Position numbers and translations under genes: made by a program. A stretch of 62,095 bases of DNA, taken from IMG/VR virus record IMGVR_UViG_3300030427_000031, positions 1 to 62,095 of that record. The stretch is one strand, 5' to 3'. Within the stretch, counting starts at the first letter, position 1. Each line of letters begins with the position of its first letter. Source of the stretch: a virus (Duplodnaviria > Caudoviricetes). The notes under the pieces are model-generated. The model made no database searches and had not been told where the DNA came from. It saw nothing but the letters and a program-made list of their open reading frames with translations. Below are positions 507 through 58,854 of this stretch, piece by piece.

Positions 507-568
507 TTTGGTATGCTAATACCAAAATTCAAAAAGAGCTTGACATTATTATTTGGGTGTGATATTCT
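507..568 (+). promoter_or_regulatory. SigA-type promoter of the RM operon with an upstream palindrome
   Basis: TTGACA (540-545), 17 nt spacer, TG-extended TATTCT (563-568); TTTGGTAT-N4-ATACCAAA at 507-526. Confidence 0.65.
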
Positions 569-610
569 TAGTACAGTTAAAGAAGTAAATTGAACCAAAG
601 GAGGTAAAAC

Positions 611-2215
611 ATGACTAATGCGACCTTTGAGTATATGAATCTTTTCAGAGGGTATATGGGGATCGACTCCTACGTTCCTGCTGCGCTTCTTGTGGCTGAA
701 ACTAAGGAAGAATGCCAGAGCAGAAAAATGTCAGATGGGTCAGAAGATCGCATCTACGAGACGATGCTCTCGGTGGCTGATAGGCTTAATATCGTAAATC
801 CATTTAAGGACAAGGAACAATTTGTCCGAATATATAAAGCATACGGTGATTTCACTGGAGAACTCGATTGGGAAATGATGATGGCTGAGAGCACCAAAGG
901 GTTTAGATACTCAGCAATATCTAACGCCCTATTTAAGGAGTACAATAATCACTTTAAACTTGATGCCGATGAAGTTCTTATTGCCGAAGGTGAAAAATTC
1001 ATCCCTAACCTGAAAAGGCTTGTTGATGAACATCCTGGCTGCAGCTTTACCATCACGACTGAAAATACAATCAGCCATCAAGTAATTAACAGGATTTTTG
1101 CTGGTTATGAGAATGTAGAGATATTGAATGCCAGCATATATCAGTATGGCTTTACAAACAAGCGGTACGACCTCATTTTCTCTGTTCCTAACTTTGGAAC
1201 AAGAAACCTTGTAGAAGATGAGAACTTCATGTGCAGAGATCAAGATGCTGTAGCACTTGAAAACCTGCTTCTTCATACAACCGGTGGCGGTGAGCTTGTA
1301 ATAACGATGCCTGCAAGAATCACATACGCTCAGGGAAAGAATGGTGAGCTTAGGAGGTTTGTGCAGCAGACTTACCGTGTTAAGGAAATCGCTGAGCTTC
1401 CGGAGGGAACCTTTGAAGGCACAGGAATTAAAACCTACCTCATTGATGTTGTCAATACTAAGCCGGGTGATGATGATGTAATAGTTCGTCGTTACAAAGC
1501 TGAGAATCGTAAAAACAGACGTGACACAGCTGGAGAACTTATTATTGAAGAAGAGACATTTGTTATGTCTGATGAACTCGAGGAGCTTGGTGACTGGAAC
1601 ATAAATAAAATATTCTCACAGCAGGATGAAGAATGGGTTAAATTTCAGGAGTCTTCTGTTCGCAGAATGGCTCTGGGAGATATCGCAGAAATCTTCCGTG
1701 GAAAATCAGTAGCAAAGAAAGACCCGACTGGAAGTATCGGAGTTGTAAATATCTCCAACATTGGCGAGTACGATATCAGCTACGACAGTCTGGACCATTT
1801 AGATGAAGAAGAACGGAAGGTTACGAACTACCTACTAAAAGAAGGCGACGTACTAATCCCCGCGAGAGGTACTGCAATCAGAACTGCAATATTTCATGAG
1901 CAAAGTTACCCTTGCATTGCTTCATCAAATGTCATTGTTATTCGTCCGGAGCCAAAGATGCTTAACAGCACTTACCTTAAGCTATTCTTAGACAGTCCTC
2001 TTGGTGAAAAGATGATAAGCGGAGTGCAGCAAGGAATAACAATTATAAACATCAGCTACAAAGACCTTAAGGTGTTAGAAATTCCTCTTCCTTCTATCGA
2101 GGAGCAACAGCAAAAAGCTGATGAATATACAAATGAATTGAGAATTTATAAAGACACCATCGCAGCTGCTGAAAAGCGCTGGAATGAGGTCGTAAATATG
2201 TTACGAGAATTTTAA
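611..2215 (+). CDS. Degenerate HsdM-like (N6-MTase fold) domain fused to a single HsdS-type TRD
   Basis: YDLIFSVPNFG where NPPF/Y is expected; ELPEGTFEGTGIKT is HsdM-like; C-terminus LGDIAEIFRGK...GDVLI...IPLPSIEEQQ is a TRD plus conserved helix. Confidence 0.7.
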   Translation: MTNATFEYMNLFRGYMGIDSYVPAALLVAETKEECQSRKMSDGSEDRIYETMLSVADRLNIVNPFKDKEQFVRIYKAYGDFTGELDWEMMMAESTKGFRYSAISNALFKEYNNHFKLDADEVLIAEGEKFIPNLKRLVDEHPGCSFTITTENTISHQVINRIFAGYENVEILNASIYQYGFTNKRYDLIFSVPNFGTRNLVEDENFMCRDQDAVALENLLLHTTGGGELVITMPARITYAQGKNGELRRFVQQTYRVKEIAELPEGTFEGTGIKTYLIDVVNTKPGDDDVIVRRYKAENRKNRRDTAGELIIEEETFVMSDELEELGDWNINKIFSQQDEEWVKFQESSVRRMALGDIAEIFRGKSVAKKDPTGSIGVVNISNIGEYDISYDSLDHLDEEERKVTNYLLKEGDVLIPARGTAIRTAIFHEQSYPCIASSNVIVIRPEPKMLNSTYLKLFLDSPLGEKMISGVQQGITIINISYKDLKVLEIPLPSIEEQQQKADEYTNELRIYKDTIAAAEKRWNEVVNMLREF

Positions 2216-2229
2216 TTGGAGGTGCTATT

Positions 2230-4647
2230 TTGTTAGGAGCTATTATCGGGGACATTGTTGGTTCCCGTTTCGAATGGAATAATAACAGGAGCAAACAGTT
2301 TGACTTCCTGACTTATAAATGCAGTGTTACAGATGACTCCATCATGTCATTAGCAATAGCTAGAGCTCTGTTGGAAAGTAAAGCTGATTACAGCGATCTA
2401 TCTAAAAATGCAGTGAAGTATATGCAAGGTATTGGAAGGCACTATCCGAATTGTGGGTATGGTGGCCGATTCAGAGATTGGATACATTCTGATAATCCAA
2501 AGCCTTATAATAGCTACGGAAATGGGTCAGCAATGCGTGTCAGCGCGTGTGGCTTCGTGGCCAACAGCCTGGAAGAAGTTAAAAAGCTATCAAAAGCAGT
2601 GACAGAAGTAACTCACAATCATTCGGAAGGCTTAAAAGGTGCTGAAGCAACAGCAGTTGCTATCTTTCTTGCCCGCTCAGGAAAGAACCTACTAGAGATT
2701 CGTGATTATATAACGAAGAACTATTATCCGCTGAACTTTACGCTTGATGGAATTCGCGACAGCTACGAGTTTAACGAGAGCTGCCAAGATACAGTGCCTC
2801 AAGCACTGGAAGCCTTCTTCGAGTCAAAGAATTTTGAAGATGCAATCCGTAATGCAATATCAATTGGAGGCGACAGTGATACCCTTGCAGCTATTACAGG
2901 AGGCATCGCAGAAGCCTATTACGGGATACCTACAGAAATCAGAAAACACGCTCTGACATTCCTTGATGAGCGTCTACTTAAGATAATTGTAGAGTTTGAA
3001 AACAAGTATCCATCAAAGATGGAAAAACTCAATGTCGATGGTAGTGTTTGCATTGAAAGGAGCAAAGAAACTAAGGTAGAGACTGGAGATCGAAACGCTA
3101 TGATACAGTCATCTGTAGAAACAGCAGATAAAGAATTAAAAGATTCTATTCCAACAAACAAAGAAATAACTAGCCAGCAGTTATTTAATCACCTTTTTGA
3201 GGCTTGCAATATTCTTCGTGGACCAATAAACCAAGATGAGTACAAAAGCTATGTGACTCCTATTCTTTTCTTCAAGAGAATTAGTGATGTCTACGACGAA
3301 GAAACACAAGATGCTCTTGAGCGCTCTGGAGGCGATGAAGAATATGCCAGTTTTCCAGAAAACCACAGCTTTGACATCCCTGAAGGATGCCACTGGCAGG
3401 ATGTCCGTGAAGCAAGTGAAAACGTAGGTGTCGCAATCGTAAAAGCGATGAATGGAATTGAACGTGCAAATCCAGATACATTAAGCGGTGTGTTCAGCAG
3501 TTTCGATGATGCCAACTGGACTGACAAAACGAAGCTATCCGACGAACGACTCAAAAACCTCATTGAGCATATGTCCAAAATAAAAGTCGGTAATACAAAC
3601 TATTCTGCAGATGTTATGGGCGATAGCTACGAATTTCTTATTAAGAAGTTTGCTGACCTGTCAAAGAAGAATGCAGGTGAGTTCTATACCCCACGTTCCA
3701 TTGTAAAACTTCTTATCATGCTGTTGGCTCCCCAGATCGGAGAAACAGTTTATGACCCCGCTTGCGGAACCGGTGGCATGTTAATTGAAGCCATCCGCTA
3801 TATGAAAGGTGATAAATTGACATACGGTCGCATCTATGGTCAAGAGAAAAACCTATCAACATCCGCAATTGCTCGTATGAATCTGTTCTTACATGGTGCA
3901 AAGGACTTCAAGGTAACACAGGGCGACACTCTTCGCTTTCCAAATTATCATGATGGCGGCAAATTGAAAACTTTTGACTGTGTCGTTGCTAATCCGCCTT
4001 TTTCTCTGAAGAGCTGGGGCGCCGAACAGTTCAGTTCAGATATTTATGGTCGAAACATGTGGGGATGCCCATCGGATTTAAATGCCGACTATGCATGGTT
4101 ACAACACATGGTGAAGTCTATGAATCAGAAGACCGGTCGATGTGCAGTTGTTCTGCCGCAGGGCGTGCTATTCCGCAGTGGCAAAGAAAGCGAAATTCGT
4201 AAGCAGCTTGTTGAATCGGATAAGTTGGAATGCGTTATTACATTGGTAGGTGGTGTCTTCTATTCCACCGGTGTCTCGGCATGTATTCTTCTTCTTAATA
4301 ACCATAAAAAGAATGAGCACAAGGGGCGCATCTGCATGATCGATGCCTCCGACATCTATACCGCACAGCGGGCACAAAACATCATGACTGACGATGATAT
4401 TAACAAGGTATTCAAATTCTACGCCGACTACAAGGATGTCATCGAAAATGTGAAGGTTGCCACTATCCCCGATGTAAGAGAAAAAGACTACACCTTAGAC
4501 ATTAAAAATTATATCGAAAAGAAAGAACAAGAAATCGTCCCTCCGGCAGAAGTGCGCAGGCAATACTTCGAAGCCTTCGATGAAATGCTGGAAGCCGAGG
4601 AAACAATGAGAAATCTTCTCATGGAAGGAGGATATGTCAATGAGTAA
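2230..4647 (+). CDS. hsdM: ADP-ribosylglycohydrolase (DraG/ARH) fused to Type I HsdM (NPPF, predicted m6A)
   Basis: N-terminus GAIIGDIVGS, TDDS, GNGSAMR, THNH, GGDSDT; C-terminus GEFYTP, DPACGTGG, NPPF; single uninterrupted frame, TTG start after GGAGG. Confidence 0.88.
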   Translation: MLGAIIGDIVGSRFEWNNNRSKQFDFLTYKCSVTDDSIMSLAIARALLESKADYSDLSKNAVKYMQGIGRHYPNCGYGGRFRDWIHSDNPKPYNSYGNGSAMRVSACGFVANSLEEVKKLSKAVTEVTHNHSEGLKGAEATAVAIFLARSGKNLLEIRDYITKNYYPLNFTLDGIRDSYEFNESCQDTVPQALEAFFESKNFEDAIRNAISIGGDSDTLAAITGGIAEAYYGIPTEIRKHALTFLDERLLKIIVEFENKYPSKMEKLNVDGSVCIERSKETKVETGDRNAMIQSSVETADKELKDSIPTNKEITSQQLFNHLFEACNILRGPINQDEYKSYVTPILFFKRISDVYDEETQDALERSGGDEEYASFPENHSFDIPEGCHWQDVREASENVGVAIVKAMNGIERANPDTLSGVFSSFDDANWTDKTKLSDERLKNLIEHMSKIKVGNTNYSADVMGDSYEFLIKKFADLSKKNAGEFYTPRSIVKLLIMLLAPQIGETVYDPACGTGGMLIEAIRYMKGDKLTYGRIYGQEKNLSTSAIARMNLFLHGAKDFKVTQGDTLRFPNYHDGGKLKTFDCVVANPPFSLKSWGAEQFSSDIYGRNMWGCPSDLNADYAWLQHMVKSMNQKTGRCAVVLPQGVLFRSGKESEIRKQLVESDKLECVITLVGGVFYSTGVSACILLLNNHKKNEHKGRICMIDASDIYTAQRAQNIMTDDDINKVFKFYADYKDVIENVKVATIPDVREKDYTLDIKNYIEKKEQEIVPPAEVRRQYFEAFDEMLEAEETMRNLLMEGGYVNE

Positions 4648-6136
4648 GCGCATAACAATCGAAGAACTGCAGTCTTATTTATGGAACTCTGCTGTTCTTC
4701 TCCGTACTAGCATAGATGCCGGGGCCTATAAGCAATACATTTTTCCGCTACTGTTCTTCAAACGCATCTGTGACGTTTTTGATGAAGAGTGTCAAAGGAT
4801 CATAAAGGAATATGGTGACGAAGAAGCCCTGGAGTTTGAAGAAAATCACCGCTTTCAGGTGCCCAAAGGCGCCCATTGGAATGATGTTCGCGCGGTTTCA
4901 GAAAATGTTGGTGTTGCCATTGTAGACGCATTCCGTAAGATAGAAAATGCAAATTTAGATAAGCTGCAAGGCATTTTTGGTGATGGTGCTTGGACAAACA
5001 AGAATCGTTTACCAGATCGCCTGCTGAAAGAACTCATCGAGCACTTCAGCACAAAGACCTTGTCTATCGAAAACTGTCCTGAGGACGAACTTGGCCAGGG
5101 ATATGAATACCTGATCAAAAAATTTGCTGACGACAGCGGTCACACAGCTCAGGAATTCTATACGAATCGTACTGTAGTCCATCTGATGACAGAGATGCTC
5201 AAGCCAGAATCTGGTGAGTCAATCTATGATCCGACATGCGGCAGTGCTGGCATGCTAATCTCTGCTATTGCGTACCTACAGCAGCAGAAAAAAGAATGGC
5301 GCAACGTTGCTATTTTTGGTCAGGAAATCAACGTACTAACATCTGCTATTGGCAAGATGAATCTGTTTCTTCATGGTGTGAAGGACTTTGATATTGTAAA
5401 TGGTGACACACTGAAATCTCCAGCTTTCATTGAAAACGGAAAACTTAAACAATTTGATATGGTCCTTGCTAATCCGCCTTATTCTATTAGTCAGTGGGAC
5501 CGTGAAGCTTTTGCAAGCGATAAATATGGACGCAACTTCCTGGGTATCCCGCCGCAAGGCCGCGCCGATTATGCTTTCTTACAGCATATCTTGATGAGCC
5601 TAAAAAAGGATACCGGCCGTTGTGCAATACTTTTCCCACATGGAGTGCTGTTCCGCAACGAGGAAAGCAGTATGCGTGAAAAACTGGTTCGCAGTGATAT
5701 GCTCGAATGTGTCATAGGTCTAGGGCCAAACCTGTTTTACAATTCCCCAATGGAGGCTTGTATAATAATTTGCCGAACAAATAAGCGTCCGGAGCGTCGC
5801 GGTCAAGTTCTCTTTATTAACGCAGTCAATGAGGTGGAACGAAAGAATGCTCAGAGCTATTTGGAAGACAAACATATTAAAAGAATTGCATCAGCCTATG
5901 AAAAATATAAGACGGACGACAGTTTTGCCCGAGTTGTCACAATTCAAGACATCGAAGGCAACAATTTTTCGCTTAGTATACCTCTTTACGTTAAATATTC
6001 TGACCAAGAGACCGAAGCAGATGAGCGATCTCTCCAGGAACGTTACGAGAGCTGGAGAACACATTCAGAAATGATGAAACTTCGCTACATTAAATTAAAC
6101 AATATGGTTGGAAAGGAGGCTGAGTGCAATGAGTAA
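4640..6136 (+). CDS. hsdM: Second Type I HsdM (NPPY, predicted m4C)
   Basis: EFYTN, DPTCGSAG and NPPY motifs; start chosen by RBS spacing. Confidence 0.9.
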   Translation: MSKRITIEELQSYLWNSAVLLRTSIDAGAYKQYIFPLLFFKRICDVFDEECQRIIKEYGDEEALEFEENHRFQVPKGAHWNDVRAVSENVGVAIVDAFRKIENANLDKLQGIFGDGAWTNKNRLPDRLLKELIEHFSTKTLSIENCPEDELGQGYEYLIKKFADDSGHTAQEFYTNRTVVHLMTEMLKPESGESIYDPTCGSAGMLISAIAYLQQQKKEWRNVAIFGQEINVLTSAIGKMNLFLHGVKDFDIVNGDTLKSPAFIENGKLKQFDMVLANPPYSISQWDREAFASDKYGRNFLGIPPQGRADYAFLQHILMSLKKDTGRCAILFPHGVLFRNEESSMREKLVRSDMLECVIGLGPNLFYNSPMEACIIICRTNKRPERRGQVLFINAVNEVERKNAQSYLEDKHIKRIASAYEKYKTDDSFARVVTIQDIEGNNFSLSIPLYVKYSDQETEADERSLQERYESWRTHSEMMKLRYIKLNNMVGKEAECNE

Positions 6137-7250
6137 AGTGCATTTAGGAGACGTCGCCAAAGAGCGAAAAGAGACCTGTAAAGATAGTAAGAACGGATAC
6201 CCAATTGTTGGTCTTGAGCACCTGACCCCAGAAGAAATCACCTTGTCTGCCTGGGAGGAAGATAAAGAGAATTCTTTTTCGAAGTTGTTCCACAAGGGAG
6301 ACGTACTTTTTGGTCGCCGACGCGCGTATCTGAAGAAAGCTGTTGTTGCTCCTTTTGACGGTATCTGCTCCGGTGACATAACAGTTATTGAGGCCATCCC
6401 GGAGAAAATTCTACCAGAGCTACTGCCATTTATCATACAGAACGACGCCCTTTTTAACTACGCCACCAACAAATCGGCAGGCTCTCTCTCTCCCCGAGTG
6501 AAGTGGGAACATCTAAAAAACTACGAGTTTGAACTGCCTGATATGAAAAAACAGCGTGAATTAGCTAAAGTGCTTTGGGCTATGGATGCCACAAAGAAAT
6601 CCTACCAAAAGTTACTACAGAAAACTGATGAGCTTGTTAAATCCCGATTTGTTGAAATGTTCCATGATTGTCATCGAGAAAAGCTGGGTGATATATGTCA
6701 GATTAAAGCGAGAATTGGTTGGCAAGGACTGAAAAAAAATGAATATCTCAGTTCTGGGGATTATTTACTTGTAACTGGTGTTGATTTTGTAAAAAATCGT
6801 ATAGATTTTGAACACTGTTTTTATGTTGATAAGGAACGATATGAGCAGGACGAATACATTCAGTTGCAAGCAGGTGATGTTCTTATTACCAAAGACGGCA
6901 CCATAGGAAAAGTTGCTTTTGTTGAGGAAATACCCATGCCGGCTACACTCAATAGTGGAGTTTTCGTAGTAAGAGATTTATATGGTAAGGTTAGCAATTG
7001 GTTTCTGTACTACGCATTCATGACAAAAGAGTTTGAGACTTTCGTTGAAGGATGTAAGACTGGGTCAACAATAGCCCACCTGAATCAGGGAGCATTTATC
7101 AATTATGAGATCCCTGTACCTAATACTGCTATGCAGGAGGAGTTCGTTTTATTCGCCCGACAGAGCGATAAATCAAAATTTGAACTGGAACAAGCGCTTG
7201 CGGAGTTAACGACAACCTATAAGAAGATAATTTCCGAGAACCTGGGCTAA
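6129..7250 (+). CDS. hsdS: Type I RM specificity subunit
   Basis: Two TRDs (LGDVA..., LGDIC...) with helical spacers; lies between hsdM and hsdR. Confidence 0.9.
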   Translation: MSKVHLGDVAKERKETCKDSKNGYPIVGLEHLTPEEITLSAWEEDKENSFSKLFHKGDVLFGRRRAYLKKAVVAPFDGICSGDITVIEAIPEKILPELLPFIIQNDALFNYATNKSAGSLSPRVKWEHLKNYEFELPDMKKQRELAKVLWAMDATKKSYQKLLQKTDELVKSRFVEMFHDCHREKLGDICQIKARIGWQGLKKNEYLSSGDYLLVTGVDFVKNRIDFEHCFYVDKERYEQDEYIQLQAGDVLITKDGTIGKVAFVEEIPMPATLNSGVFVVRDLYGKVSNWFLYYAFMTKEFETFVEGCKTGSTIAHLNQGAFINYEIPVPNTAMQEEFVLFARQSDKSKFELEQALAELTTTYKKIISENLG

Positions 7251-7472
7251 GTCAAAACGGAAACTTGCTGAAGCCACATAAGATTACCCAGGCCGAACGT
7301 CCACTTGCACTTTTTATAATTGAAATAGCTCCAGCGAGATTCAGAAGAAAGAGCATTCAGTTCTCACAAGGATCACGCCGGATAAGATAATTAATTACGC
7401 TTTCTGCCCGGACCGACGTAATGAAGCTGTCCGGCACGGATATTAAAAATTTAATGATGGGAGGAAATGTTT

Positions 7473-10382
7473 ATGTTTAACGAAGATAATACAATGGAGC
7501 AGATGGTAATCTCGACTCTTAAAGGCAATGGCTGGAATTACATCCCCGCAGAAGAGCTACCTCGAACTTATTCTGATGTCATGGTAGAGCCTATGGTCAA
7601 AGACGCCCTTATCCGCCTTAATCCAGAAATAGCAGAAGACCCGTCACGCGCTGATGAGGTCATCTATAAACTGCGCACAATCATTCTGTCGGTACAGCCG
7701 CGTAACCTTATAACCCAGAACGAGCTCTTTAAGAAGATGGTGTTTGAAGAAAACTCCTATCCCTTTGGTAAAGATGGTCGGATGATTCCGATACGTTTTT
7801 TCGGCACAATGAAAAAGGAAGATCTAGCTCTTAACGAATATGTCGTCACTAACCAGTGGGTTTATCCTCAGGCAGAGGGCGGCAAGCGACTCGATATCGT
7901 TCTGCTGATAAATGGTTTTCCTATTGCTATCGGTGAGCTCAAGACTCCGGTCCGCAATGCGATAACCTGGTTAGACGCTGCCAGCGATATAGCTTCCTAC
8001 GAAAAGAGCATCCCTGAGATGTTCGTATCTAACGTATTCAACTTCGCTACTGAAGGTAAATGCTATCGCTATGGTTCTGTTGGAATGCCAATCAATATGT
8101 GGGGACCTTGGCATACTCCTGACCATAAGTCAGAAGGCAGCCTTGCCGATGTTAAAGTCAGCGTAGGTGATATGATTACACCTGAGAAGGTTATGGATAT
8201 TTTCCAGTTCTTTACCCTTTTTGCAACAGACAAAAAGCATGTAAAGTACAAGATTATCTGCCGTTATCAGCAGTATGAAGGTGCTAACCTTATCGTGCAG
8301 CGTGTTGTTGCTGGTTATCCTAAGCAAGGCCTTATCTGGCATTTCCAAGGTTCAGGAAAGTCGCTGCTGATGGTGTTTGCGGCGCAGAAGCTTCGAATGA
8401 TTCCTGAGCTTAAGAATCCGACCGTTGTAATAGTTGATGACCGTCTTGACCTTGAAACACAGATTACAGCAACCTTTAATGCTTCAGATGTTCCGAACTT
8501 AGTGTCACTTGCTACGAAGGAAGATGTTGAGAACTTCTTTAAACAGGATATTCGTAAGATTGCGATTACGACTATTTTCCGCTTTGGCGATGTTGATGGC
8601 GTTCTCAATCTTAGAGATAACATAATCATTATGGTTGATGAAGCACATAGAACTCAGGAAGGTGACCTCGGTGAAAAGATGCGTGCAGCACTACCCAATG
8701 CGTTCTTCTTCGGGCTTACAGGTACTCCCATTAATCGTATTGATAAGAATACATTCCGTACCTTTGGCGCAGCAGAAGACCGGAGCGGGTATTTGAGCCG
8801 CTATACCTTCTCTGACTCCATCAGAGATAATGCGACTCTACCGCTTAACTTTGAGCCAGTCCCGGTTGACCTTCATGTCGATAAGGATAAGCTAGATGCT
8901 GAGTTTGATGCTCTAACAGAAACACTTTCAGATGCAGACCGTGCAGAGCTTTCCAAACGCGTAAATATGAAGGCCATCATGTATGATCCTAAGCGTATCC
9001 GTAAGGTTTGTGAACACATCGTAAAGCACTACAAAGAGAAGATTGAACCTAATGGATATAAAGGTCAGATTGTTGTATTCGACCGTGAGTGCTGCCTTAA
9101 GTATAAGGAAGAGCTGGATAAGCTGCTCCCTCCTGAGGCAACTACAATTGTAATGGATACAAACAGCGATAAGGAAGACCGTTATAAGAAGTATCGCCGC
9201 AACCGTGATGAGGAAGGAAAGATTTTAGATCAGTTCCGTGATAAGAGCAATCCTCTGAAGCTGGTTATTGTTACTGCAAAACTTCTTACAGGTTTCGATG
9301 CCCCTATTCTTCAGGCGATGTATTTGGATAAGCCGATGAAGGACCATAACCTTCTACAGGCCATCTGTCGTACAAACAGAACTTATGATGAAGGAAAGAC
9401 TCATGGACTGATTGTAGACTATATCGGTATTTTCGATAATGTTGCTAAGGCTTTGGACTTTGATGAAGCCAGCATGAAGAAAGTTATCACCAACATCGAA
9501 GAAGTCAAGAAACAGGTTCCTGCGCTTCTTAGAAAGTGCCTCAGCTATTTTATGGGCGTTGACCGTACAGTTGAAGGCTGGGAAGGATTACTTGCCGCAC
9601 AGGAGTGTATTCCTACAAATAAGGATAAGGATGCGTTCGCAGCGGATTACCGTGTTCTTAATAGAGCCTGGGATGCGTTGTCCCCTGATCCATTTCTTGA
9701 TAAATTCAAATTTGACTATGTATGGCTCACTAAAGTTTATGAGTCTGTAAAACCGACTGACAACCGTGGTGCGCTTGTATGGGCAGCTCTTGGTGCTAAA
9801 ACGTTGGAGCTTGTTCACGCAAACATCGAAGTTGGCCAGGTTCATGATGATCTTGATATTCTTACATTAGACGCAGACCTGATTGACGAGTTTATCCGTA
9901 AGCAGAAGGATGTCAAGAAGACAACCATGAAGGTAGAGATTGACCTGGTTGCTAAGATTCGCGAACATACAAACGACCCTAAATTCGTAAAGCTAGGCGA
10001 GAAGCTCGAAGAACTTCGTGAACGGCATGAACAGGGCCTGATTAATAGCATTGAGTTCCTGAAGCTCTTGCTTGAACTCGCAAGAGAGGCAGCGCAGGCA
10101 GAGAAGGAAGTTGTACCGGAAGAAGAAATCGACCGTGGTAAAGCGGCGCTCACAGAGCTCTTTAAAGGTGCTAAGAATGATAAAACTCCTATCATTGTTG
10201 AGCGCATCGTTGCCGATATCGATGACATTGTAAAGATTGTACGTTTCGACGGCTGGCAAAGAACAACTACAGGTAAAAATGAAGTTAAGAAAGCGCTACG
10301 CAGTGTCATCTGGATTAAGTACAAGATTAAGGATAAAGAAGTATTCGATAAAGCTTATAGCTATATTGAACAGTATTATTAA
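7473..10382 (+). CDS. hsdR: Type I RM restriction subunit
   Basis: DIVLLING..ELK nuclease motif, WHFQGSGKS, DEAH, LTGTP, LLTGFD, QAICRTNR. Confidence 0.95.
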   Translation: MFNEDNTMEQMVISTLKGNGWNYIPAEELPRTYSDVMVEPMVKDALIRLNPEIAEDPSRADEVIYKLRTIILSVQPRNLITQNELFKKMVFEENSYPFGKDGRMIPIRFFGTMKKEDLALNEYVVTNQWVYPQAEGGKRLDIVLLINGFPIAIGELKTPVRNAITWLDAASDIASYEKSIPEMFVSNVFNFATEGKCYRYGSVGMPINMWGPWHTPDHKSEGSLADVKVSVGDMITPEKVMDIFQFFTLFATDKKHVKYKIICRYQQYEGANLIVQRVVAGYPKQGLIWHFQGSGKSLLMVFAAQKLRMIPELKNPTVVIVDDRLDLETQITATFNASDVPNLVSLATKEDVENFFKQDIRKIAITTIFRFGDVDGVLNLRDNIIIMVDEAHRTQEGDLGEKMRAALPNAFFFGLTGTPINRIDKNTFRTFGAAEDRSGYLSRYTFSDSIRDNATLPLNFEPVPVDLHVDKDKLDAEFDALTETLSDADRAELSKRVNMKAIMYDPKRIRKVCEHIVKHYKEKIEPNGYKGQIVVFDRECCLKYKEELDKLLPPEATTIVMDTNSDKEDRYKKYRRNRDEEGKILDQFRDKSNPLKLVIVTAKLLTGFDAPILQAMYLDKPMKDHNLLQAICRTNRTYDEGKTHGLIVDYIGIFDNVAKALDFDEASMKKVITNIEEVKKQVPALLRKCLSYFMGVDRTVEGWEGLLAAQECIPTNKDKDAFAADYRVLNRAWDALSPDPFLDKFKFDYVWLTKVYESVKPTDNRGALVWAALGAKTLELVHANIEVGQVHDDLDILTLDADLIDEFIRKQKDVKKTTMKVEIDLVAKIREHTNDPKFVKLGEKLEELRERHEQGLINSIEFLKLLLELAREAAQAEKEVVPEEEIDRGKAALTELFKGAKNDKTPIIVERIVADIDDIVKIVRFDGWQRTTTGKNEVKKALRSVIWIKYKIKDKEVFDKAYSYIEQYY

Positions 10383-29567: not shown

Positions 29568-29678
29568 ATAACTAAACACAGGGAACAGTGCCGAAGATGG
29601 CTCTGTTTCTCGTACAGATAGATTTAGAAGGCTTGCTTAATGCAGGTCTATTTTTATGTTCGGAAGGAGGCGGCGGAT

Positions 29679-31283
29679 ATACGAAAACTCAAGAAATACA
29701 CACCAACCCGGTTTAAGTCGGCTGATTCGATCTACGATAAGTCATCCGCCGATTATGCCGTTGCTTTTGTTGAAGCCCTCTCACATACCAAAGGCACGTG
29801 GGCGGGAAAGCCTTTTGAACTAATCGATTGGCAGGAGAGGATAATTCGTGACGTATTCGGAACCCTGAAGCCAAACGGTTATCGGCAGTTCAACACAGCT
29901 TATGTAGAAATACCTAAGAAGATGGGGAAAAGTGAGCTTGCGGCGGCTGTTGCCCTGTTGCTCACTTGCGGAGATAACGAGGAACGCGCCGAGGTTTACG
30001 GATGCGCTGCTGACCGTAACCAGGCATCCATCGTTTTTAACGTTGCGGCGGATATGGTACGGATGTGCCCGGCGCTATCCAAGCGAGTGAAAATACTCGA
30101 CTCAATGAAGCGGCTTATCTATCAACCGACAGGCAGTATTTATCAGGTGCTTTCAGCTGACGTAGGCAACAAACACGGCTTTAACACCCATGGTGTGGTG
30201 TTTGATGAACTTCATACCCAACCTAACCGAAAGCTGTACGACGTTATGACCAAAGGCAGTGGTGATGCAAGAATGCAGCCACTGTATTTTCTTATAACTA
30301 CTGCCGGGGACAACCAAAACAGTATCTGCTGGGAGGTACACCAGAAGGCCCTTGATATCATAAACGGCAGAAAAAGCGACCCCACCTTTTATCCTGTTAT
30401 ATATGGGGCCGATCCTGAGGACGACTGGACAGATCCAAAAGTATGGAAGAAGGCAAATCCATCTTTAGGAATCACCGTCAGCATGGATAAAGTCAAAGCA
30501 GCGTTTGAATCAGCAAAGCAAAATCCTGCCGAGGAGAACAGCTTCCGGCAGCTCAGGCTTAATCAATGGGTGAAACAGGCTGTACGCTGGATGCCAATGG
30601 ACAAATGGGATGCCTGCGCTTTTGCAGTTGATCCGGAATTATTGCGAGGACGCGTTTGCTATGGCGGACTTGACCTATCAAGTAGTACGGATATAACAGC
30701 GTTTGTTCTGGTGTTCCCACCTGAAGATGAAGCGGATAAATACACAGTTCTAGCATTCTTTTGGATACCAGAGGATAACATCGATTTGCGGGTACGGCGT
30801 GATCACGTAAACTACGATGTGTGGGAAAAGCAAGGATTCCTACAAACCACCGAGGGTAACGTAGTACATTACGGCTTCATCGAATCGTTTATTGAAGAAC
30901 TCGGAACAAAATATAACATTCGAGAAATCGCCTTTGACCGTTGGGGTGCTGTACAAATGACGCAGAATCTTGAAAACCTCGGCTTTACGGTTGTTCCATT
31001 TGGCCAAGGCTTTAAAGATATGTCTCCACCGACCAAAGAACTGATGAAACTGACCTTGGAACAGAAAATAGCTCACGGAGGTCATCCGGTCCTTCGGTGG
31101 ATGATGGATAACATATTTGTCCGAACCGACCCTGCCGGAAATATAAAGGCGGATAAGGAAAAGTCGACTGAGAAAATCGACGGCGCGGTGGCAACCATTA
31201 TGGCGCTCGACCGTGCTATCCGATGCGGCTCCGGTAACGGTGGCGAGTCGGTCTACAACGAAAGGGGGTTATTGATACTATGA
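29679..31283 (+). CDS. terL: Terminase large subunit (probable ATA start; ORF-track ATG at 29640)
   Basis: PKKMGKS, FDELH, ITTAG, GLDLS, KIDG..A. Confidence 0.92.
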   Translation: MRKLKKYTPTRFKSADSIYDKSSADYAVAFVEALSHTKGTWAGKPFELIDWQERIIRDVFGTLKPNGYRQFNTAYVEIPKKMGKSELAAAVALLLTCGDNEERAEVYGCAADRNQASIVFNVAADMVRMCPALSKRVKILDSMKRLIYQPTGSIYQVLSADVGNKHGFNTHGVVFDELHTQPNRKLYDVMTKGSGDARMQPLYFLITTAGDNQNSICWEVHQKALDIINGRKSDPTFYPVIYGADPEDDWTDPKVWKKANPSLGITVSMDKVKAAFESAKQNPAEENSFRQLRLNQWVKQAVRWMPMDKWDACAFAVDPELLRGRVCYGGLDLSSSTDITAFVLVFPPEDEADKYTVLAFFWIPEDNIDLRVRRDHVNYDVWEKQGFLQTTEGNVVHYGFIESFIEELGTKYNIREIAFDRWGAVQMTQNLENLGFTVVPFGQGFKDMSPPTKELMKLTLEQKIAHGGHPVLRWMMDNIFVRTDPAGNIKADKEKSTEKIDGAVATIMALDRAIRCGSGNGGESVYNERGLLIL

Positions 31284-39746: not shown

Positions 39747-40598
39747 ATGGAACTTACTTATATTAATGCAGATGGCAGGAGCATCACGCTCAAACAAAGC
39801 CGCCCGTATTTTCTTACCAAGATAGACGGCACAGGCAACATACGTCAGACCGTTAACACCTTCAAGGCACCGGATCAGGACGGTGCTTTTTATATTTCCT
39901 CTACACTGGATATGCGAAACATCATACTGGAGGGTACAGTCGTAGCAGATACACCTGACGATGCCTATGCATGGAGACAGCTTTTCCTTAAGATATTTAG
40001 CCCTAAGCTGAATGGAACACTCATCTATCGTGAACGGCAAATTGCCTGCGTTGTAGAGGAAGCGGGTTTTACCGTTTCCACCAGGCAGCGCATACCTAAC
40101 TTTTTTGTCAGTCTGCTTTGCCCGTCTCCCTTCTTTGAGACGCTTAATGAAGTGCGTGAGGAACTGGCATCTTGGATACCTTTATTCGAGTTTGAACTGG
40201 AAATACCTGAGAGTGGCATGGAGTTTGGAATGCGCCAGCCCAGTCAGATCATCACGGTGGACAACATCGGCGATGTTTCCTGTGGGTGTGAGATCGTATT
40301 CCAGGCACTGGGAACGGTGTCGAATCCAGAACTCTTAAATATTGATACCGGGGAATACATCCGCCTTCTCACTACAATGAATGCCGGAGATGAACTTCGT
40401 GTATATACCCATTTCGCTGGTAAGCGAGTAGTCAGCATCAACGGTTCTGCGGTAACAAATGCTTTCTCCCTGCTGGACACTAATTCGGTATTTTTCCAGC
40501 TTGCAGCAGGCATTAACACTTTGCGCTACGATGCTTCAGTCAATATGGAACTGCTGGAAGTTAGCATTTACTATCGTCCGCAGTTTCTGGGGGTGTGA
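39747..40598 (+). CDS. Distal tail (Dit-like) protein
   Basis: Follows the tape measure gene; LLCPSPFF, NIGDV, L..G.N.L. Confidence 0.75.
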   Translation: MELTYINADGRSITLKQSRPYFLTKIDGTGNIRQTVNTFKAPDQDGAFYISSTLDMRNIILEGTVVADTPDDAYAWRQLFLKIFSPKLNGTLIYRERQIACVVEEAGFTVSTRQRIPNFFVSLLCPSPFFETLNEVREELASWIPLFEFELEIPESGMEFGMRQPSQIITVDNIGDVSCGCEIVFQALGTVSNPELLNIDTGEYIRLLTTMNAGDELRVYTHFAGKRVVSINGSAVTNAFSLLDTNSVFFQLAAGINTLRYDASVNMELLEVSIYYRPQFLGV

Positions 40599-42517
40599 AT
40601 ATGCAATTATATATCTACAATCCAAACCGGGAGCTTACGGGTATTGTGGAGTCTTTTGAGTACCTGCGTTGGACACGGCGTTACTCTCAGTGTGGTTCAT
40701 TTGAGCTAAAAGCCATTGCAACACAGGAGAACACCGCGCTCTTAAAAGAAGGGAACATTATTTGGAAGAACGATGATGAGGAAGCCGGGATTATTGAACA
40801 TCTGGAATTGTCTCAGACCGAGCAGGAAATTATCACGGCGACTGGTCGCTTTGCTACCTCTTTCCTCGCCCGTCGTATTTTGTGGCAAACCGAGATACTT
40901 TCCGGAGATCTTTCTGTCTGTGCCCTGCAGCTGATAAATAATAATCTCATCAACCCTACTGATACAGCCCGGCAGATTACTGGAATATCCTTCTCGTCTC
41001 CTAACTTGGGTATTCCTGTTAGTACCCAGATATCATATCGGAATCTGATGGATTCAGTAACGGAACTATGCGCCGCTTCGGATATTGGCATTAAGACAGT
41101 GTTCACTCCTGCTACAGGTATTTTTACAGTGACGCTGTATAACGGGTCCAACTCCCAGGCGGTATTCTCTAAGGAGTACGAGAATCTGACTGAACAGATA
41201 TATACAGAGAGCGTAGCGGATTACGCCAATACCGCACTCATCGGTGGTGAGGGTGAAGGGGCAGACCGTACATTTGTTGCAATCACAAGCGGTTCTGGGG
41301 AGACTCGCCGCGAAATCTTCGTGGATGCCAAAGACTTACGGGCTGAGGACTTTGGAACAGATTACGTCAATACTCTGACTTTTCGAGGTCAGAGTAAGCT
41401 GAATGAGCAGGCAATACGATATACATTTGACACATCGGTCAATCCGCATGGCAACTTGACTTACAAGATAGACTTCGACCTTGGGCAGACCGTCAAAGTG
41501 ATCTCCAAGGCATGGGGCGTATCCATGACTACGCGAATCACCGAGATCGAAGAAACATATGACGCAGATGGGCAGAGTATCAGCGTAGTGTTTGGAAAGG
41601 CTGAGCTAACTATAGCGCAGAAAGTCCGCTCTGACATGAGCGAGGTTAAAACAGCACTATTGGCCCCTACCGGTATATCCGAAGTTGCCGAAGCTCTAAG
41701 CGTCGTGGAAGGAACACTGGGTGACTTGACGCAGGTGGACCCGAAAATTCAGGGTGATGACGTCGCGGATACCTTCAACAACCTGTTTGGGAAGCTTCCT
41801 ACCCTCGAAATTTTTGTAGGTGCGGGTACCATATCGATCGGTCAGTATGCCTTGTACAACATGGTACCAGGAGATACTTTATACTTCACCTCGTACAGTG
41901 GTAACAAGTTCAGCGACCAACCAAGTGAAAACGGACACGTATTTTTAACAAAGCATAATGGAGATAACACGGGCTATGGCTATCAGCGAGCAATGGGTTT
42001 CTTTATCAGTAGGGACACTATGACGTTTTATGTAATCTCTGTTTTCGTATTCAATAACCTATCTGGGCAGGCGAACTGGCTCAACATCAATAATGAACCA
42101 ATAACTACGACTAGGCTTGCAAACGGCGCAGTCACCGGCGTAAAGATCACAGATCGTACAATTACCGCTTCTAAAATTTCATCTGCGTTTACTGACTACT
42201 CTACGACAGAACAAAACACAGGGCGTTTATGGATTGATGGTAAGACGATTTATCGCAAACATGTGAATCTTGGGTCACTTACTAATGCGACACCGAAAAG
42301 CGTAGCTCATGGCATATCAAACCTCAGCACTGTTGTCAGTTTAACAGGCTTTGCGACAAACGGAACCGTATTCTTGCCGCTGCCACTTGCTCGTTACAAC
42401 AACTTTGCCTCGCAAATCGGTCTGTATATGGATACAACCAATGTCGTTGTCGAACCCGGCAATGACCGGACAACATATACAGGTTATGTGGTTATAGAGT
42501 ATACGAAAACTGTTTAA
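40595..42517 (+). CDS. Tal/Gp37-like tail protein with fibre-like C-terminal extension
   Basis: WTRRY..GSFEL, RREIFVDA, DFDLGQTV; C-terminal WIDGKTIYRK...IEYTK. Confidence 0.7.
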   Translation: MNMQLYIYNPNRELTGIVESFEYLRWTRRYSQCGSFELKAIATQENTALLKEGNIIWKNDDEEAGIIEHLELSQTEQEIITATGRFATSFLARRILWQTEILSGDLSVCALQLINNNLINPTDTARQITGISFSSPNLGIPVSTQISYRNLMDSVTELCAASDIGIKTVFTPATGIFTVTLYNGSNSQAVFSKEYENLTEQIYTESVADYANTALIGGEGEGADRTFVAITSGSGETRREIFVDAKDLRAEDFGTDYVNTLTFRGQSKLNEQAIRYTFDTSVNPHGNLTYKIDFDLGQTVKVISKAWGVSMTTRITEIEETYDADGQSISVVFGKAELTIAQKVRSDMSEVKTALLAPTGISEVAEALSVVEGTLGDLTQVDPKIQGDDVADTFNNLFGKLPTLEIFVGAGTISIGQYALYNMVPGDTLYFTSYSGNKFSDQPSENGHVFLTKHNGDNTGYGYQRAMGFFISRDTMTFYVISVFVFNNLSGQANWLNINNEPITTTRLANGAVTGVKITDRTITASKISSAFTDYSTTEQNTGRLWIDGKTIYRKHVNLGSLTNATPKSVAHGISNLSTVVSLTGFATNGTVFLPLPLARYNNFASQIGLYMDTTNVVVEPGNDRTTYTGYVVIEYTKTV

Positions 42518-50115: not shown

Positions 50116-50532
50116 ATGCCAATTCCATATGGGTACAAAATTGAGAAAGGCAAAGCTGTTATAGATGAAGCTCAAGCCGAGCAGGTTAGGATGATTTACA
50201 AAGGTTATCTTTCCGGCCTCGCCTACGTTGCTGCAGCAGAGGCCGCTGGGCTTACGATTCTACATCCAGGTGTAAAGAAAATGCTACAAAATAAACGCTA
50301 CCTTGGTGATAAATACTATCCTGCGATCATCGATCAGGAGACTTTTGATAGAGCTGAAGCAGAACGAATCAAACGTCAAAGAAGGCTTGGTAGAGTATTT
50401 GCGGATAAGCCGGTAGAGGAATGCAAGCCAGCGACAAAATTTACTATGCCGAAAGCAGGAAAGATTTTCATTGACCCATTTAAGCAGGCGGAGTACATCT
50501 ACAGCTTGATAGAAAGTGAGGTGGAGGTATGA
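50116..50532 (+). CDS. Recombinase DNA-binding-domain-only protein
   Basis: IPYGY...N.RYLG...YPAIID...F; no catalytic domain. Confidence 0.8.
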
Positions 50533-52103
50533 TCTCCTTAGCGAGTAATGTAACGGTTATTCCAGCAAAGAAAACCATCGGGACACAGAAAGCAACCGAC
50601 AAAAAGCAGAAAACCAGAGTCGCAGCATACTGTCGTGTCAGTACTGACAGCGATGAGCAAGAAACCAGCTATGAAGCCCAGATCCAGCATTACACCTCAT
50701 ACATTGAAAGTCATCCGGATTGGGTACTAGCCGGAATTTATGCCGATGATGGCATCTCTGGAATGAATACGAAGAAGCGTGATGAGTTCCAGCACATGAT
50801 TAACGACTGCAATGACGGCAAGATAGATATGGTGATTACCAAGTCCATCAGCCGGTTTGCAAGGAATACGGTGGATTGCCTGAATTACACCAGAGCCCTT
50901 AAGAATAAGAACATTGGCGTCTATTTCGAGAAAGAAAATATTAATACGCTCGATGCTAAGGGTGAAGTGCTCATGACAATTATGGCTTCTCTTGCACAGC
51001 AAGAAAGTGAGTCATTGTCGGCCAACGTTCGTCTGGGCTTGCAGTTCCGATACCAACAAGGAAAAGTTCAGGTCAATCACAACTGGTTCTTGGGATATAC
51101 CAAAGATGCAGACGGTCACCTCATCATTGATCCAGAGCAAGCCGAAGTCGTGAAGCGCATTTATAGAGAGTACCTTTCCGGTAAGAGCTTCTTACAGATA
51201 AAAAGGTCTCTTGAGGCCGACGGTATTCTAAACGGTGCGGGTAATGAAAAATGGCATGAAAGTAATATAAAGCAGATACTTACGAACGAGAAGTACATCG
51301 GAGACGCTTTGCTCCAGAAGACTTATACGGTGGATATTCTTGAAAAGAAGCGTGAAGCTAATAAGGGTCAGGTTCCTAAATATTATGTAGAGGACAGCCA
51401 TGAAGCTATTATTCCAAAGGATATCTTCCTAAAGGTACAGGAGGAAATCGCACGACGCGCAAATCTTACTAAAGGCACCACAAAGCGCAAACGAATCTAT
51501 AGTGGCCGTTACGCTTTATCTGGAATAGTTTTCTGCGCATACTGTGGCGACATCTTCCGCAGAATTAAATGGAACAATCGCGGGTGTAAGTCCACCGTTT
51601 GGCGCTGTGTCAGCAGAGTTGAAAAAGACGGCCCTGATTGCCCGGCAAGAACTGTTCACGAGAAATTGCTTCAGGAGGTAGTTATCAAGGCTATAAACGA
51701 AGCGTTCCGTGAAAAGGAAGCAATCCTGCCACTTTTACGAGAGAATATCGAGAGTAGCCTTGAGGAAGTCACCTCAAATCAGATTGCAGCGATTGATGAA
51801 CAAATGAAGTCAATGCAGCAGGAGCTAATGGCAACCGTTAATTCAAAGAATACCGGTGATGAGCTTGGTCTGGAGATTAGGAGGCTGCGCGATGAGAAGC
51901 AGGCCCTACAAAATGAGCAGGCATCCCGTCAGGATCTGAAAAAGCGAATTGATGATTTGATGCGTTTTCTTAACGACCTGCCTTGTGAGCTGATTGAATA
52001 TGAAGAAGATTATGTGAGGACTCTCCTGGAAAAGATAACGGTTTACGACGACCACATCATAGTTGAATTTAAGTCCGGAATTGAAATCCAAATTGACGAA
52101 TAA
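50529..52103 (+). CDS. Large serine recombinase 2
   Basis: [26 protein letters not shown]...WRC. Confidence 0.92.
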
Positions 52104-57327: not shown

Positions 57328-58563
57328 TTACTTGGTAGGCAAATTATGATTGACTGCTTTTTCAAATATATCAACTGACTGTTCAGCCATTTTTTCAGTT
57401 GAATGTGTGTATGTTCCAAGGGTGGTTTCAATATTGGCATGACCAAGCCTGTCTTGAACATCCTTAATGTTTGCACCATTTTCAATCAGGGTGGTTGCGT
57501 GGGTATGGCGCAATGAATGAAAGTTGAACAGTATACCCAAGCTATAATGAATCACCCTGGCAGCATATTTGAAGGTGTCAGGTGTTATCATGTCACCATC
57601 TTCTTTGGTGCAAACCATTTGAATTGGTTTTATGATACCAGCATCAATTGAAAGTGACAGTGAATAAATCCTTCTTAATTTTTCATTCCCATTCAATTCT
57701 TCAACTTCATATTGCTGAATGAAGTGCTGACCATATTTCAATCTGTTTTCCAGTTGCCATTTCTTATGCTGCTTCAAAGCTAAAATTAATGTTTTACCAA
57801 TCTTGATGGTTCTTACTGATGATTCTGTTTTAGTAGAACCAAAATACCAGTCCGGTTTGCGCTTATAAATGAGTTTGTTAATATTAACAGTTCCTTTTTC
57901 AAGGTCAATATCATCCCATGTCAAACCCATGACTTCACCAATTCTGCATCCAGTATAATATCCAATCATCAGCGCAATATGAAAAGTTGTTCCGGCTGGA
58001 AATCTTGAAATTATCTTTTCAAAGTCATCTTTTGAAATAACCTTGTGGTCAATTTCAAGTTTTGAATGTTCATATTTTGGGTACTTCACATATTGCATGG
58101 GATTATCCTTGATGAACTTGCATGGATGCACAGCATATTTTATTGACCCACTTAAAACAGTCATGATGTTGGTCAAATGATGTTTACTAAAGCCGCTTAA
58201 ATATTTTCCATTGATAAATTCCTGAAGGATTGCGGGTGTCAATGACTTCAGCTTGTAAATTCCCAATGCTGGTTTAATATGATTCCTGATGATAATTTCA
58301 TAACCAGTTTGGGTGTTGTATTTACAATTAAGCAACACATAGTTCTTCATCCAATAATCCATATAATCTGATACTGAAATTTCAGTTGGTTCAAAATGTA
58401 ACCCGGCATTGTTGTACTCTTGAAGTGCAACCCTCAAAGCAGCTTCAGCTTCCTTCTTTGTTCTTCCTCCAACACGTTCAATTCTTTTCCTTTTTCCATC
58501 CACATTGGATGCTTCAAAGGAAAAATACCACTTGTCACCACGTTTTCTTACATGACCTTCCAT
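57328..58563 (-). CDS. int: Tyrosine integrase
   Basis: Arm-binding N-terminus (GHVRKRGDKW), TGCRIGE, HSLRHT, LGH...T..TY. Confidence 0.93.
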   Translation of the reverse strand: MEGHVRKRGDKWYFSFEASNVDGKRKRIERVGGRTKKEAEAALRVALQEYNNAGLHFEPTEISVSDYMDYWMKNYVLLNCKYNTQTGYEIIIRNHIKPALGIYKLKSLTPAILQEFINGKYLSGFSKHHLTNIMTVLSGSIKYAVHPCKFIKDNPMQYVKYPKYEHSKLEIDHKVISKDDFEKIISRFPAGTTFHIALMIGYYTGCRIGEVMGLTWDDIDLEKGTVNINKLIYKRKPDWYFGSTKTESSVRTIKIGKTLILALKQHKKWQLENRLKYGQHFIQQYEVEELNGNEKLRRIYSLSLSIDAGIIKPIQMVCTKEDGDMITPDTFKYAARVIHYSLGILFNFHSLRHTHATTLIENGANIKDVQDRLGHANIETTLGTYTHSTEKMAEQSVDIFEKAVNHNLPTK

Positions 58564-58592
58564 AATAACTTCATCCTTTCTTTTATTTTTTA

Positions 58593-58854
58593 GTTCAAGA
58601 TGGTTCAAGATGAATTGTTTTATCTTGAACTGCTTTAAAGCCTTTATATATAAGGTTTTTTTCAATATCAGTTCAAGTTCAAGATTGTTTTTTCTTCTAT
58701 ACATTATTTCTTAAGGATATATAAACATTTTTAATGTAATTTTAAAAATGTTTAATAAAATATCAATTCATCTTGAACCATCTTGAACTTTCCCATAAAT
58801 ACAAGGTTTTCATCTTGAACCACAATCTTGAACCATCTTGAACTTATCTTGAAC
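58593..58854. repeat. Array of ten GTTCAAGA/TCTTGAAC octamers around an AT-rich core
   Basis: GTTCAAGA at 58593, 58603, 58677; TCTTGAAC at 58623, 58771, 58781, 58813, 58826, 58836, 58847. Confidence 0.85.

Follow-up and report, generated by a model that had tools for sequence, protein, structure and literature searches.

Transcriptional control of Type I restriction–modification (RM) operons has been described only recently and for small regulators only, namely the transcription factors HsdC of Mycoplasma (PMC5282649) and RptR of enteropathogenic Escherichia coli (PMC12255303). The methyltransferase (MTase) polypeptides of SsoII and EcoRII are reported to repress their own RM promoters (PMC12707154), and an engineered fusion of HsdM to half of HsdS, from a Staphylococcus aureus system, dimerises, recognises a palindrome and stays active (PMC6158711). 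Esub1 of Streptococcus pyogenes (SpyM3_0890) is a homodimer in the crystal and in solution, paired through C-terminal helices and bearing two DNA-binding heads; in the account of its structure it is called transcription-factor-like, its DNA target was not known to the authors, and the phage protein Prx binds its DNA face (PMC11754733). Here we analyse the gene at 611-2215 of a 62,095-nt stretch of viral DNA (Caudoviricetes; IMG/VR record IMGVR_UViG_3300030427_000031), hereafter the window. Its product, P0001, is a predicted catalytically dead HsdM-like protein fused to a half-HsdS, at the head of a Type I operon. We propose, with a probability of about 0.6, that P0001 is a homodimeric, M2S-shaped autoregulator, probably a repressor, of a prophage-borne two-methylase Type I operon of the N6-methyladenine/N4-methylcytosine (m6A/m4C) kind, and that its most likely task is not restriction but the switching of its own promoter via a conserved palindrome. 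The anatomy of the gene, the purifying selection on it, its likeness to Esub1, its linkage to Type I genes and the conserved, unique palindrome are established here.

P0001 resembles the controller (C) proteins, HsdC and RptR in being encoded within an RM locus, and these proteins bind repeats in the promoter of their own operon; they are, however, small dedicated transcription factors, whereas P0001 is a 534-aa dead enzyme with a target recognition domain (TRD) and without a helix-turn-helix (HTH), whose DNA binding is predicted. With SsoII and EcoRII the proposed role shares the use of a methyltransferase polypeptide as repressor of its own RM promoter, but those enzymes stay active and carry an added N-terminal repressor domain, whereas in P0001 catalysis appears lost and its own TRD would do the reading. 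The order MTase, TRD, helix is common to P0001, the engineered HsdM–half-HsdS fusion and chain 7EEW_A, although the engineered fusion is active and restricts with HsdR, whereas P0001 lacks the S-adenosylmethionine (SAM) loop and the catalytic residue. Esub1, like P0001, has one TRD and one dimerisation helix, 33–34% identical to residues 349-534, but is a stand-alone protein of about 200 aa with neither an MTase-like domain nor adjoining RM genes; in P0001 the Esub1-type module is not free-standing but sits behind a 340-aa dead HsdM-like part, and the RxPhixR motif that Prx binds in Esub1 is partly kept (R402 is retained, N406 replaces the second R). Ronin also puts a Type I MTase-like module to a non-methylation use, and its catalytic mutant is reported to work (bioRxiv 10.1101/2023.04.06.535777); its HsdM and HsdS are separate, its toxic effector, RonA, is 61 aa long and hsdR is usually missing, whereas this locus holds a full Type I operon. 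Membership of Ronin was rejected on the presence of hsdR at 7467-10382, and no effector was identified in this locus, where a RonA-like small open reading frame (ORF) was not searched for. The operon downstream of the gene matches the layout of two-methyltransferase m6A/m4C Type I systems such as PacII, in which an NPPF-type M1 and an NPPY-type M2 lie beside S and are followed by R; the parts of that paper concerned with this layout mention an extra TRD on M2.PcaI and no upstream dead M–half-S gene (PMC5100572). A dead M–half-S protein acting as a controller differs from the known small regulators, the active MTase repressors, the engineered fusions and the Ronin decoy, and we found no description of one in the literature, supplements and REBASE lying outside the scope of that search.

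The promoter region and the gene carry the following features.

507-526, no strand: candidate operator, the perfect palindrome TTTGGTAT-GCTA-ATACCAAA (TTTGGTAT-N4-ATACCAAA), unique and recurrent in relatives
540-568, plus strand: sigma-70-like promoter from a consensus scan, with -35 box TTGACA (540-545), 17-nt spacer and TG-extended -10 box TATTCT (563-568)
597-604, plus strand: ribosome-binding site AAAGGAGG, 6 nt before the ATG, by sequence inspection
611-2215, plus strand: open frame of P0001, 534 aa
611-955, plus strand: N-terminal helical domain, residues 1-115, six high-confidence helices in the AlphaFold2 model; the least conserved part
956-1630, plus strand: dead gamma-class MTase fold, residues 116-340, from Pfam N6_Mtase and Foldseek, SAM loop deleted
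977-1000, plus strand: motif I remnant LIAEGEKF, from alignment
1181-1195, plus strand: motif IV remnant SVPNF, from alignment
1631-2095, plus strand: single Esub1-type TRD, residues about 341-495, from Pfam Methylase_S, hidden Markov model (HMM) search and Foldseek
2096-2215, plus strand: C-terminal helix, residues 496-534, and stop codon; predicted antiparallel dimerisation helix (helix 496-533 in the model)

A first-pass annotation of this DNA, made from the letters alone, had read the gene as an apparently dead HsdM-like subunit followed by one TRD and a long helix, leading the operon behind a promoter and ending 14 nt before an ADP-ribosylglycohydrolase (ARH)–HsdM fusion. All of this was borne out, down to the spacing (stop codon at 2213-2215, next start, a TTG, at 2230). 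Pfam matched N6_Mtase weakly at residues 171-302 (22.1 bits, cut-off 20.4) and Methylase_S clearly at residues 353-504 (E 8e-15), and the NCBIfam and PADLOC scans recognised the S-like part only; on this gene PADLOC returned generic Type I S matches and one mad5 match, and named no defence system. The P0001 profile matched HsdS chains in the PDB at E 1e-11 to 6e-4. An AlphaFold2 monomer built from an 84-row alignment had a mean predicted local distance difference test score (pLDDT) of 94.2 and a predicted template modelling score of 0.90, and was the model used throughout; a 20-row alignment left the TRD below pLDDT 50. Foldseek found the model to resemble HsdM, CamA and M.TaqI (E 1e-13 to 1e-22), with full-length matches to 7EEW_A (a Vibrio vulnificus MTase crystallised with Ocr; the best), CamA and M.TaqI, all three covering both the MTase and the TRD parts. 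The fold of a gamma-class N6-adenine MTase is present, then, and its working motifs are not. Alignment to the active HsdM2 of the same operon placed a 9-residue gap exactly at the DPxCGxGG SAM loop, where P0001 reads LIAEGEKF, and the acidic position of motif II is unconserved (E/Q/A/T/M in homologues). Motif IV reads S191-V-P-N-F195; across 20 aligned homologues (51–88% identity) only P193 and F195 are invariant, the family pattern is x-P-x-F with V/C/T/L/S/A in first position, and the catalytic N/D/S of (D/N/S)PP(Y/F) is never present. On the S side the TRD fold and the conserved helix of a Type I HsdS are there, one of each per chain rather than two. Taken together, alignment and predicted fold indicate that P0001 is an exapted fusion of HsdM and half-HsdS in which SAM binding and catalysis have been lost, and probably neither name found in annotation, 'restriction endonuclease subunit S' (NCBI/UniRef) or type I M protein (some JGI records), fits it.

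Searches returned 733 homologues of P0001 at E≤1e-3, the best 120 of the 733 almost all 530-559 aa long, and a HMMER scan returned 102 clusters (50% identity) at E≤1e-30, numbers that put the feature well beyond chance. Pairwise ratios of non-synonymous to synonymous substitution (dN/dS) were 0.08-0.11 for the whole gene, 0.065-0.115 for the dead MTase domain and 0.025-0.069 for the TRD. We compared a close set of 33 species-genome loci (44–98% identity) and a distant subfamily of nine loci (35–40% identity). An HsdM gene follows in 31 of the 33 close and eight of the nine distant loci, so that neither decay nor a missing link to Type I loci, either of which would have undone the first-pass reading, was found. 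Mean pairwise identity was 0.67 for the TRD (minimum 0.55, 15 sequences) against 0.31 for the N-terminal domain; the TRD is the best-conserved domain of P0001, unlike that of an ordinary HsdS, and the HsdS proteins of the same loci are 29–100% identical to the one in the window. The suggestion that the gene might be an alternative specificity module therefore seems unlikely, because such a module should have a variable TRD, and no result lent support to the further suggestion of a reader of modified DNA.

The palindrome ends 13 nt upstream of the -35 box of a promoter that scores 10 of 12 against consensus, with the TG extension, and that recurs with the same hexamers at the same offset in related loci. 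At up to three mismatches it is the sole match in the window (62 kb), where the core RGTAT-N4-ATACY is also single; the 4.1-Mb genome holds one perfect copy, and up to two mismatches are reached in six places, against five for a control pattern. For 32 related loci the upstream sequence reaches 150 nt or more; in 31 of them the palindrome (up to three mismatches) is no further than 300 nt ahead of the start codon, and in the 32nd (L012) it is 320 nt ahead, against a background of nine such sites elsewhere in 515,540 nt of those loci. The close-family consensus is TTTRGTATT-NN-AATACYAAA, with near-invariant arms and two variable central bases. In the distant subfamily the palindrome takes the form TTTAGTAT-N4-ATACTAAA, found with at most one mismatch in eight of nine loci and degenerate in the ninth; here the -35 hexamer lies inside it in five of nine loci, which is the layout of a repressor, and the promoters score 9 to 12 of 12. 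In the window's subfamily the site lies about 4-16 nt upstream of the -35 box where promoter calls are plausible, mostly 13-14 nt. Because the 35–40% subfamily, whose HsdM is only about 30% identical, still has TTTAGTAT-N4-ATACTAAA, the palindrome, as judged from the loci compared, goes with the dead M–S gene and not with the rest of the cassette. Like RM controllers, the gene comes first and has a repeat in its own promoter (31/32 close, 8/9 distant loci), although P0001 is not a small HTH-type protein.

Two observations touch the same region. A 67-aa ORF with a TTG start on the minus strand (322-525) overlaps the palindrome and is probably spurious. Three activated-sludge studies yielded RNA-library contigs that match parts of the gene at 90–99% likeness; none covers 442-584 and one begins at 585, but such contigs cannot show a transcript start and may stem from DNA carry-over, and no conclusion on expression or start site was drawn from them.

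What might read the palindrome was approached by asking which candidate readers the loci share. No upstream gene family was common to more than six of 24 loci, which ruled out a conserved upstream regulator; the six that share a family may, to judge by the window's own upstream ORF, have in common the rRNA methyltransferase gene beside which the element sits. P0006, the product of a gene downstream of hsdR in the window, was likewise ruled out, occurring outside the window only in L001 (1/33 loci). Since HsdS varies, P0006 is confined to L001 and upstream families are not shared, this comparison leaves the TRD of P0001 as the cassette's one conserved domain able to read sequence; the Pfam and NCBIfam scans of P0001 turned up no HTH family.

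The likeness of this TRD to Esub1 is close. Residues 349-536 matched Esub1 (8VSQ/8VSR) in a PDB profile search at an HMM E value of 2.4e-46, and Foldseek superposed the model on Esub1 with a template modelling (TM) score of 0.90-0.94 and a root-mean-square deviation of 1.4-1.8 Å. Prediction of a homodimer from two copies of residues 116-534 gave an ipSAE interface score of 0.54, against 0.00 for the best control, with helix 502-534 at the interface, at least 53% of contacts in agreement between runs and pLDDT at least 78; in calibration 20 of 30 solved homomers passed this mark, as did one of 23 solved monomers. In 71 of 74 loci of stand-alone Esub1-like genes, found in metagenomes outside RM operons, the same core, GTAT-N4-ATAC, occurs in the 160 nt before the gene; the promoter sites ATGATAGTATCTAAATACTATAAT and GATAGTATTTAAATACCAAG are examples, both overlapping the -10 region. 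Around one such gene (L074) four GTAT-N4-ATAC sites, at 1482, 1764, 2933 and 3937, lie within 6.6 kb, and L072 is similar; at least one of the four, CTAAGTATTTTGATACTAAA, is intergenic and stands before a neighbouring gene. This arrangement suggests that Esub1-type proteins control a small local regulon.

In the mechanism we propose, two P0001 chains would pair by their C-terminal helices, as do Esub1 and the engineered M–half-S fusion, to give a clamp of M2S1 shape whose two TRDs are identical. One RGTAT half-site would be recognised by each TRD; in 507-526 the centres of the two half-sites are about 10 bp, or about one helical turn, apart. A dimer of about 120 kDa placed 13 nt upstream of the -35 box, or on the -35 box in the sister subfamily, would occlude RNA polymerase and impose negative feedback on the cassette, that is on P0001, ARH-HsdM1, HsdM2, HsdS and, probably, on HsdR as well. 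For the dead MTase domain, clamping the DNA is probably the only task left; the adenine of GTAT may possibly be flipped into the residual pocket (P193, F195) without being methylated, in which case the operator would never be modified. The presence of defence cargo (HNH, GmrSD) between the gene and M1 in some loci fits the role of a leader regulator.

Several points weigh against this proposal. We infer each functional step, namely dimerisation, DNA binding, the sign of regulation and base flipping, from comparative data. The rows of the frequency matrix were picked by motif, which makes the conservation of the arms partly circular, although position and recurrence are independent of that choice. 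The arms, at 8-9 bp and nearly contiguous, look more like a classical operator than like a bipartite Type I site, for which half-sites of 2-5 bp are given (PMC5100572), and one TRD may not be enough to account for the whole palindrome; a host factor that binds it is just conceivable. In the window's subfamily the position of the site upstream of the -35 box suggests that an activator would be suited too. The dimer score may reflect memory of the solved 8VSQ dimer and as such is a sign of likeness, not a proof. Most of the Esub1-like loci are nearly identical to one another; together they amount to about four independent sequence groups, and GTAT-N4-ATAC also occurs elsewhere in them (152 sites in 373 kb). 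Finally, three relatives of 600-645 aa in which motif I is retained differ in this respect: AGGTAT-GAAC-ATACCT stands upstream of the first, a related palindrome lies by the -35 box of the second, and the third has none.

The same binding with the opposite sign would make the dimer, at about -58, a class I-type activator or a dual activator–repressor in the manner of C proteins, which are reported both to activate and to repress (PMC12707154). The palindrome of the window's subfamily, which ends 4-16 nt upstream of the -35 box without overlapping it, would allow this; a promoter with a consensus TTGACA and a TG-extended -10 box should not need activation, however, the spacing between site and -35 box varies (6, 11-16 nt) and so is not locked to one face of the helix, and the -35 box lies inside the site in five of nine sister-subfamily loci. 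Activation is the chief competitor within the proposed model, and we regard it as rather unlikely. The first-pass annotation had also raised the idea that P0001 acts as decoy or sensor towards anti-restriction proteins that mimic DNA, for example Ocr and ArdA. In such a scheme the M2S-shaped dimer would soak up or sense the mimics, and operator binding would be secondary or absent. The best full-length structural match is an MTase crystallised with Ocr (7EEW), Ronin is described as an HsdMS-based decoy immunity in which methylation is dispensable (bioRxiv 10.1101/2023.04.06.535777), and Prx binds the DNA face of Esub1 (PMC11754733), all of which speak for such a role. Decoy function alone nevertheless leaves a conserved, genome-unique palindrome at the gene's own promoter unexplained; the operon retains hsdR, a fusion takes the place of the separate HsdM–HsdS pair, and a stoichiometric decoy would require high expression. 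As a full account it is quite unlikely, and a decoy or sensor role may exist only as an addition to operator binding. One such addition, unlikely but worth stating, is that P0001 serves as an alarm by mimicking the Type I clamp, so that Ocr, ArdA or Prx-like proteins would pull it off the operator and de-repress the defence operon and its cargo.

Participation in restriction itself, with P0001 as a fixed-specificity M–S module that recruits HsdR or pairs with an active HsdM to attack a conserved invader sequence, draws on the engineered HsdM–half-HsdS fusion, which dimerises and restricts with HsdR (PMC6158711), and on the 14-nt translational closeness of the gene to M1. Because P0001, with motifs I and IV lost, would be unable to methylate, the only perfect genomic site, in its own promoter, would be an unprotected self-target; the gene also heads operons with unrelated HsdM and HsdR types, and in one locus, on a short contig, the next gene is GmrSD (L023). 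This role is very unlikely. That the gene is the decaying, functionless remnant of a third methyltransferase accords with the loss of the catalytic motifs, but is hardly credible given the low dN/dS of the gene and of its dead domain, a length steady at about 534 aa over hundreds of homologues and a model pLDDT of 94.

Downstream of the gene the operon continues as follows.

2230-4647, plus strand: ADP-ribosylglycohydrolase fused to HsdM1, motif IV NPPF (ANPPFS in P0002), from Pfam and translation
4634-6136, plus strand: HsdM2, motif IV NPPY (ANPPYS in P0003), from Pfam and translation
6108-7250, plus strand: full-length HsdS with two TRDs (two Pfam stretches), varying between loci
7467-10382, plus strand: HsdR (TIGR00348, 482 bits)

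M1 and M2 overlap by 14 nt and M2 and S by 29 nt, and the ARH domain at the N terminus of HsdM1 is a strong match (Pfam E 5e-36). Of the close loci, 31 of 33 have HsdM1 directly 3' of the gene, the exceptions being L019, which stops at a contig edge, and L023, in which a GmrSD-type gene comes next; HsdM2 was seen in 27 of 33, and HsdR in 19 of 33, where the contig was long enough. Co-occurrence with the ARH–HsdM fusion, put forward as a check in the first-pass annotation, revealed no tie: ARH is present in 21 of the 31 close loci with M1, is missing from the other ten (L022 and L024-L032; eight labelled alpha- or 'proteobacterium', one Clostridiales and one unclassified metagenome-assembled genome (MAG)) and is absent from the eight of nine distant-subfamily loci in which an HsdM, single and about 30% identical to the window's, follows. 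From this distribution the gene appears tied to Type I operons generally and not to the ARH fusion or the M1/M2 duplication. The module is found in Bacillota as well as in MAGs that carry the labels Alphaproteobacteria, Bacteroidales and others; the phage collection gave no match to the gene, and the plasmid matches were all partial, under 60% identity and for the most part to ordinary N-6 methylase or S genes. The module looks portable: the Type I operons that it heads are of two kinds, and their defence cargo varies.

Other loci vary around this arrangement. The ninth distant locus (L057 7217-10618, minus strand) keeps an orphan dead M–S gene and its palindrome, after which comes only a KilA-N ORF of 161 aa whose end is a remnant of the HsdR C-terminal domain. 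HNH endonuclease genes lie between the dead M–S gene and M1 in L003 (11611-12597) and L012 (11608-15623), ORFs of no recognised family, 209-221 aa and 784 aa in size, occupy the same place in L010 (11606-12271), L012 and L016 (11603-12232), and the GmrSD-type gene of L023 (1646-3425, on the short contig) is apparently split in two frames. Specificity shuffling is suggested by L004, L005, L008, L011 and L020, where the stretch from M2 to hsdR holds two or three whole or partial hsdS genes and has gaps of 1-2 kb. The 600-645-aa relatives (L051 214-2088; L052 1453-3381, minus strand; L053 325-2124) have the same kind of TRD fused and retain a motif I-like loop and GQEIN/AEEIN, with a non-canonical motif IV (DLPF, NLPL and DIPR); the L051 form also heads an HsdM...HsdR operon (L063), and these proteins may be evolutionary intermediates.

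Within the window, P0006 (10398-12311, 637 aa), which follows hsdR, has an HECVH metallopeptidase-like motif, a weak capP match (PADLOC E 2e-5) and a C-terminal HTH (Pfam E 0.01). A prophage-like region at 13236-58704 encodes a family A DNA polymerase, a DUF2800 nuclease, a D5-type primase, an SNF2 helicase, the terminase large subunit TerL (29640-31283), a siphovirus Gp37-like tail protein (40595-42517), a large serine recombinase (50529-52103) and, on the minus strand, a tyrosine integrase (57328-58704). The RM operon sits between this region and the 3' end of an upstream ORF (1-237), which may be an rRNA uracil-methyltransferase gene; the operon may be prophage cargo.

In conclusion, if the proposal is correct, P0001 would be a controller made from the methylase and specificity parts of the very system that it controls, put to this use after inactivation. 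Should the alarm function also hold, it would be the first transcription factor whose operator is read by a restriction TRD together with an inactive MTase pocket that possibly flips bases. The palindrome further offers a testable DNA target for the Esub1 family, RGTAT-N4-ATACY, or in extended form TTTRGTAT-N4-ATACYAAA.

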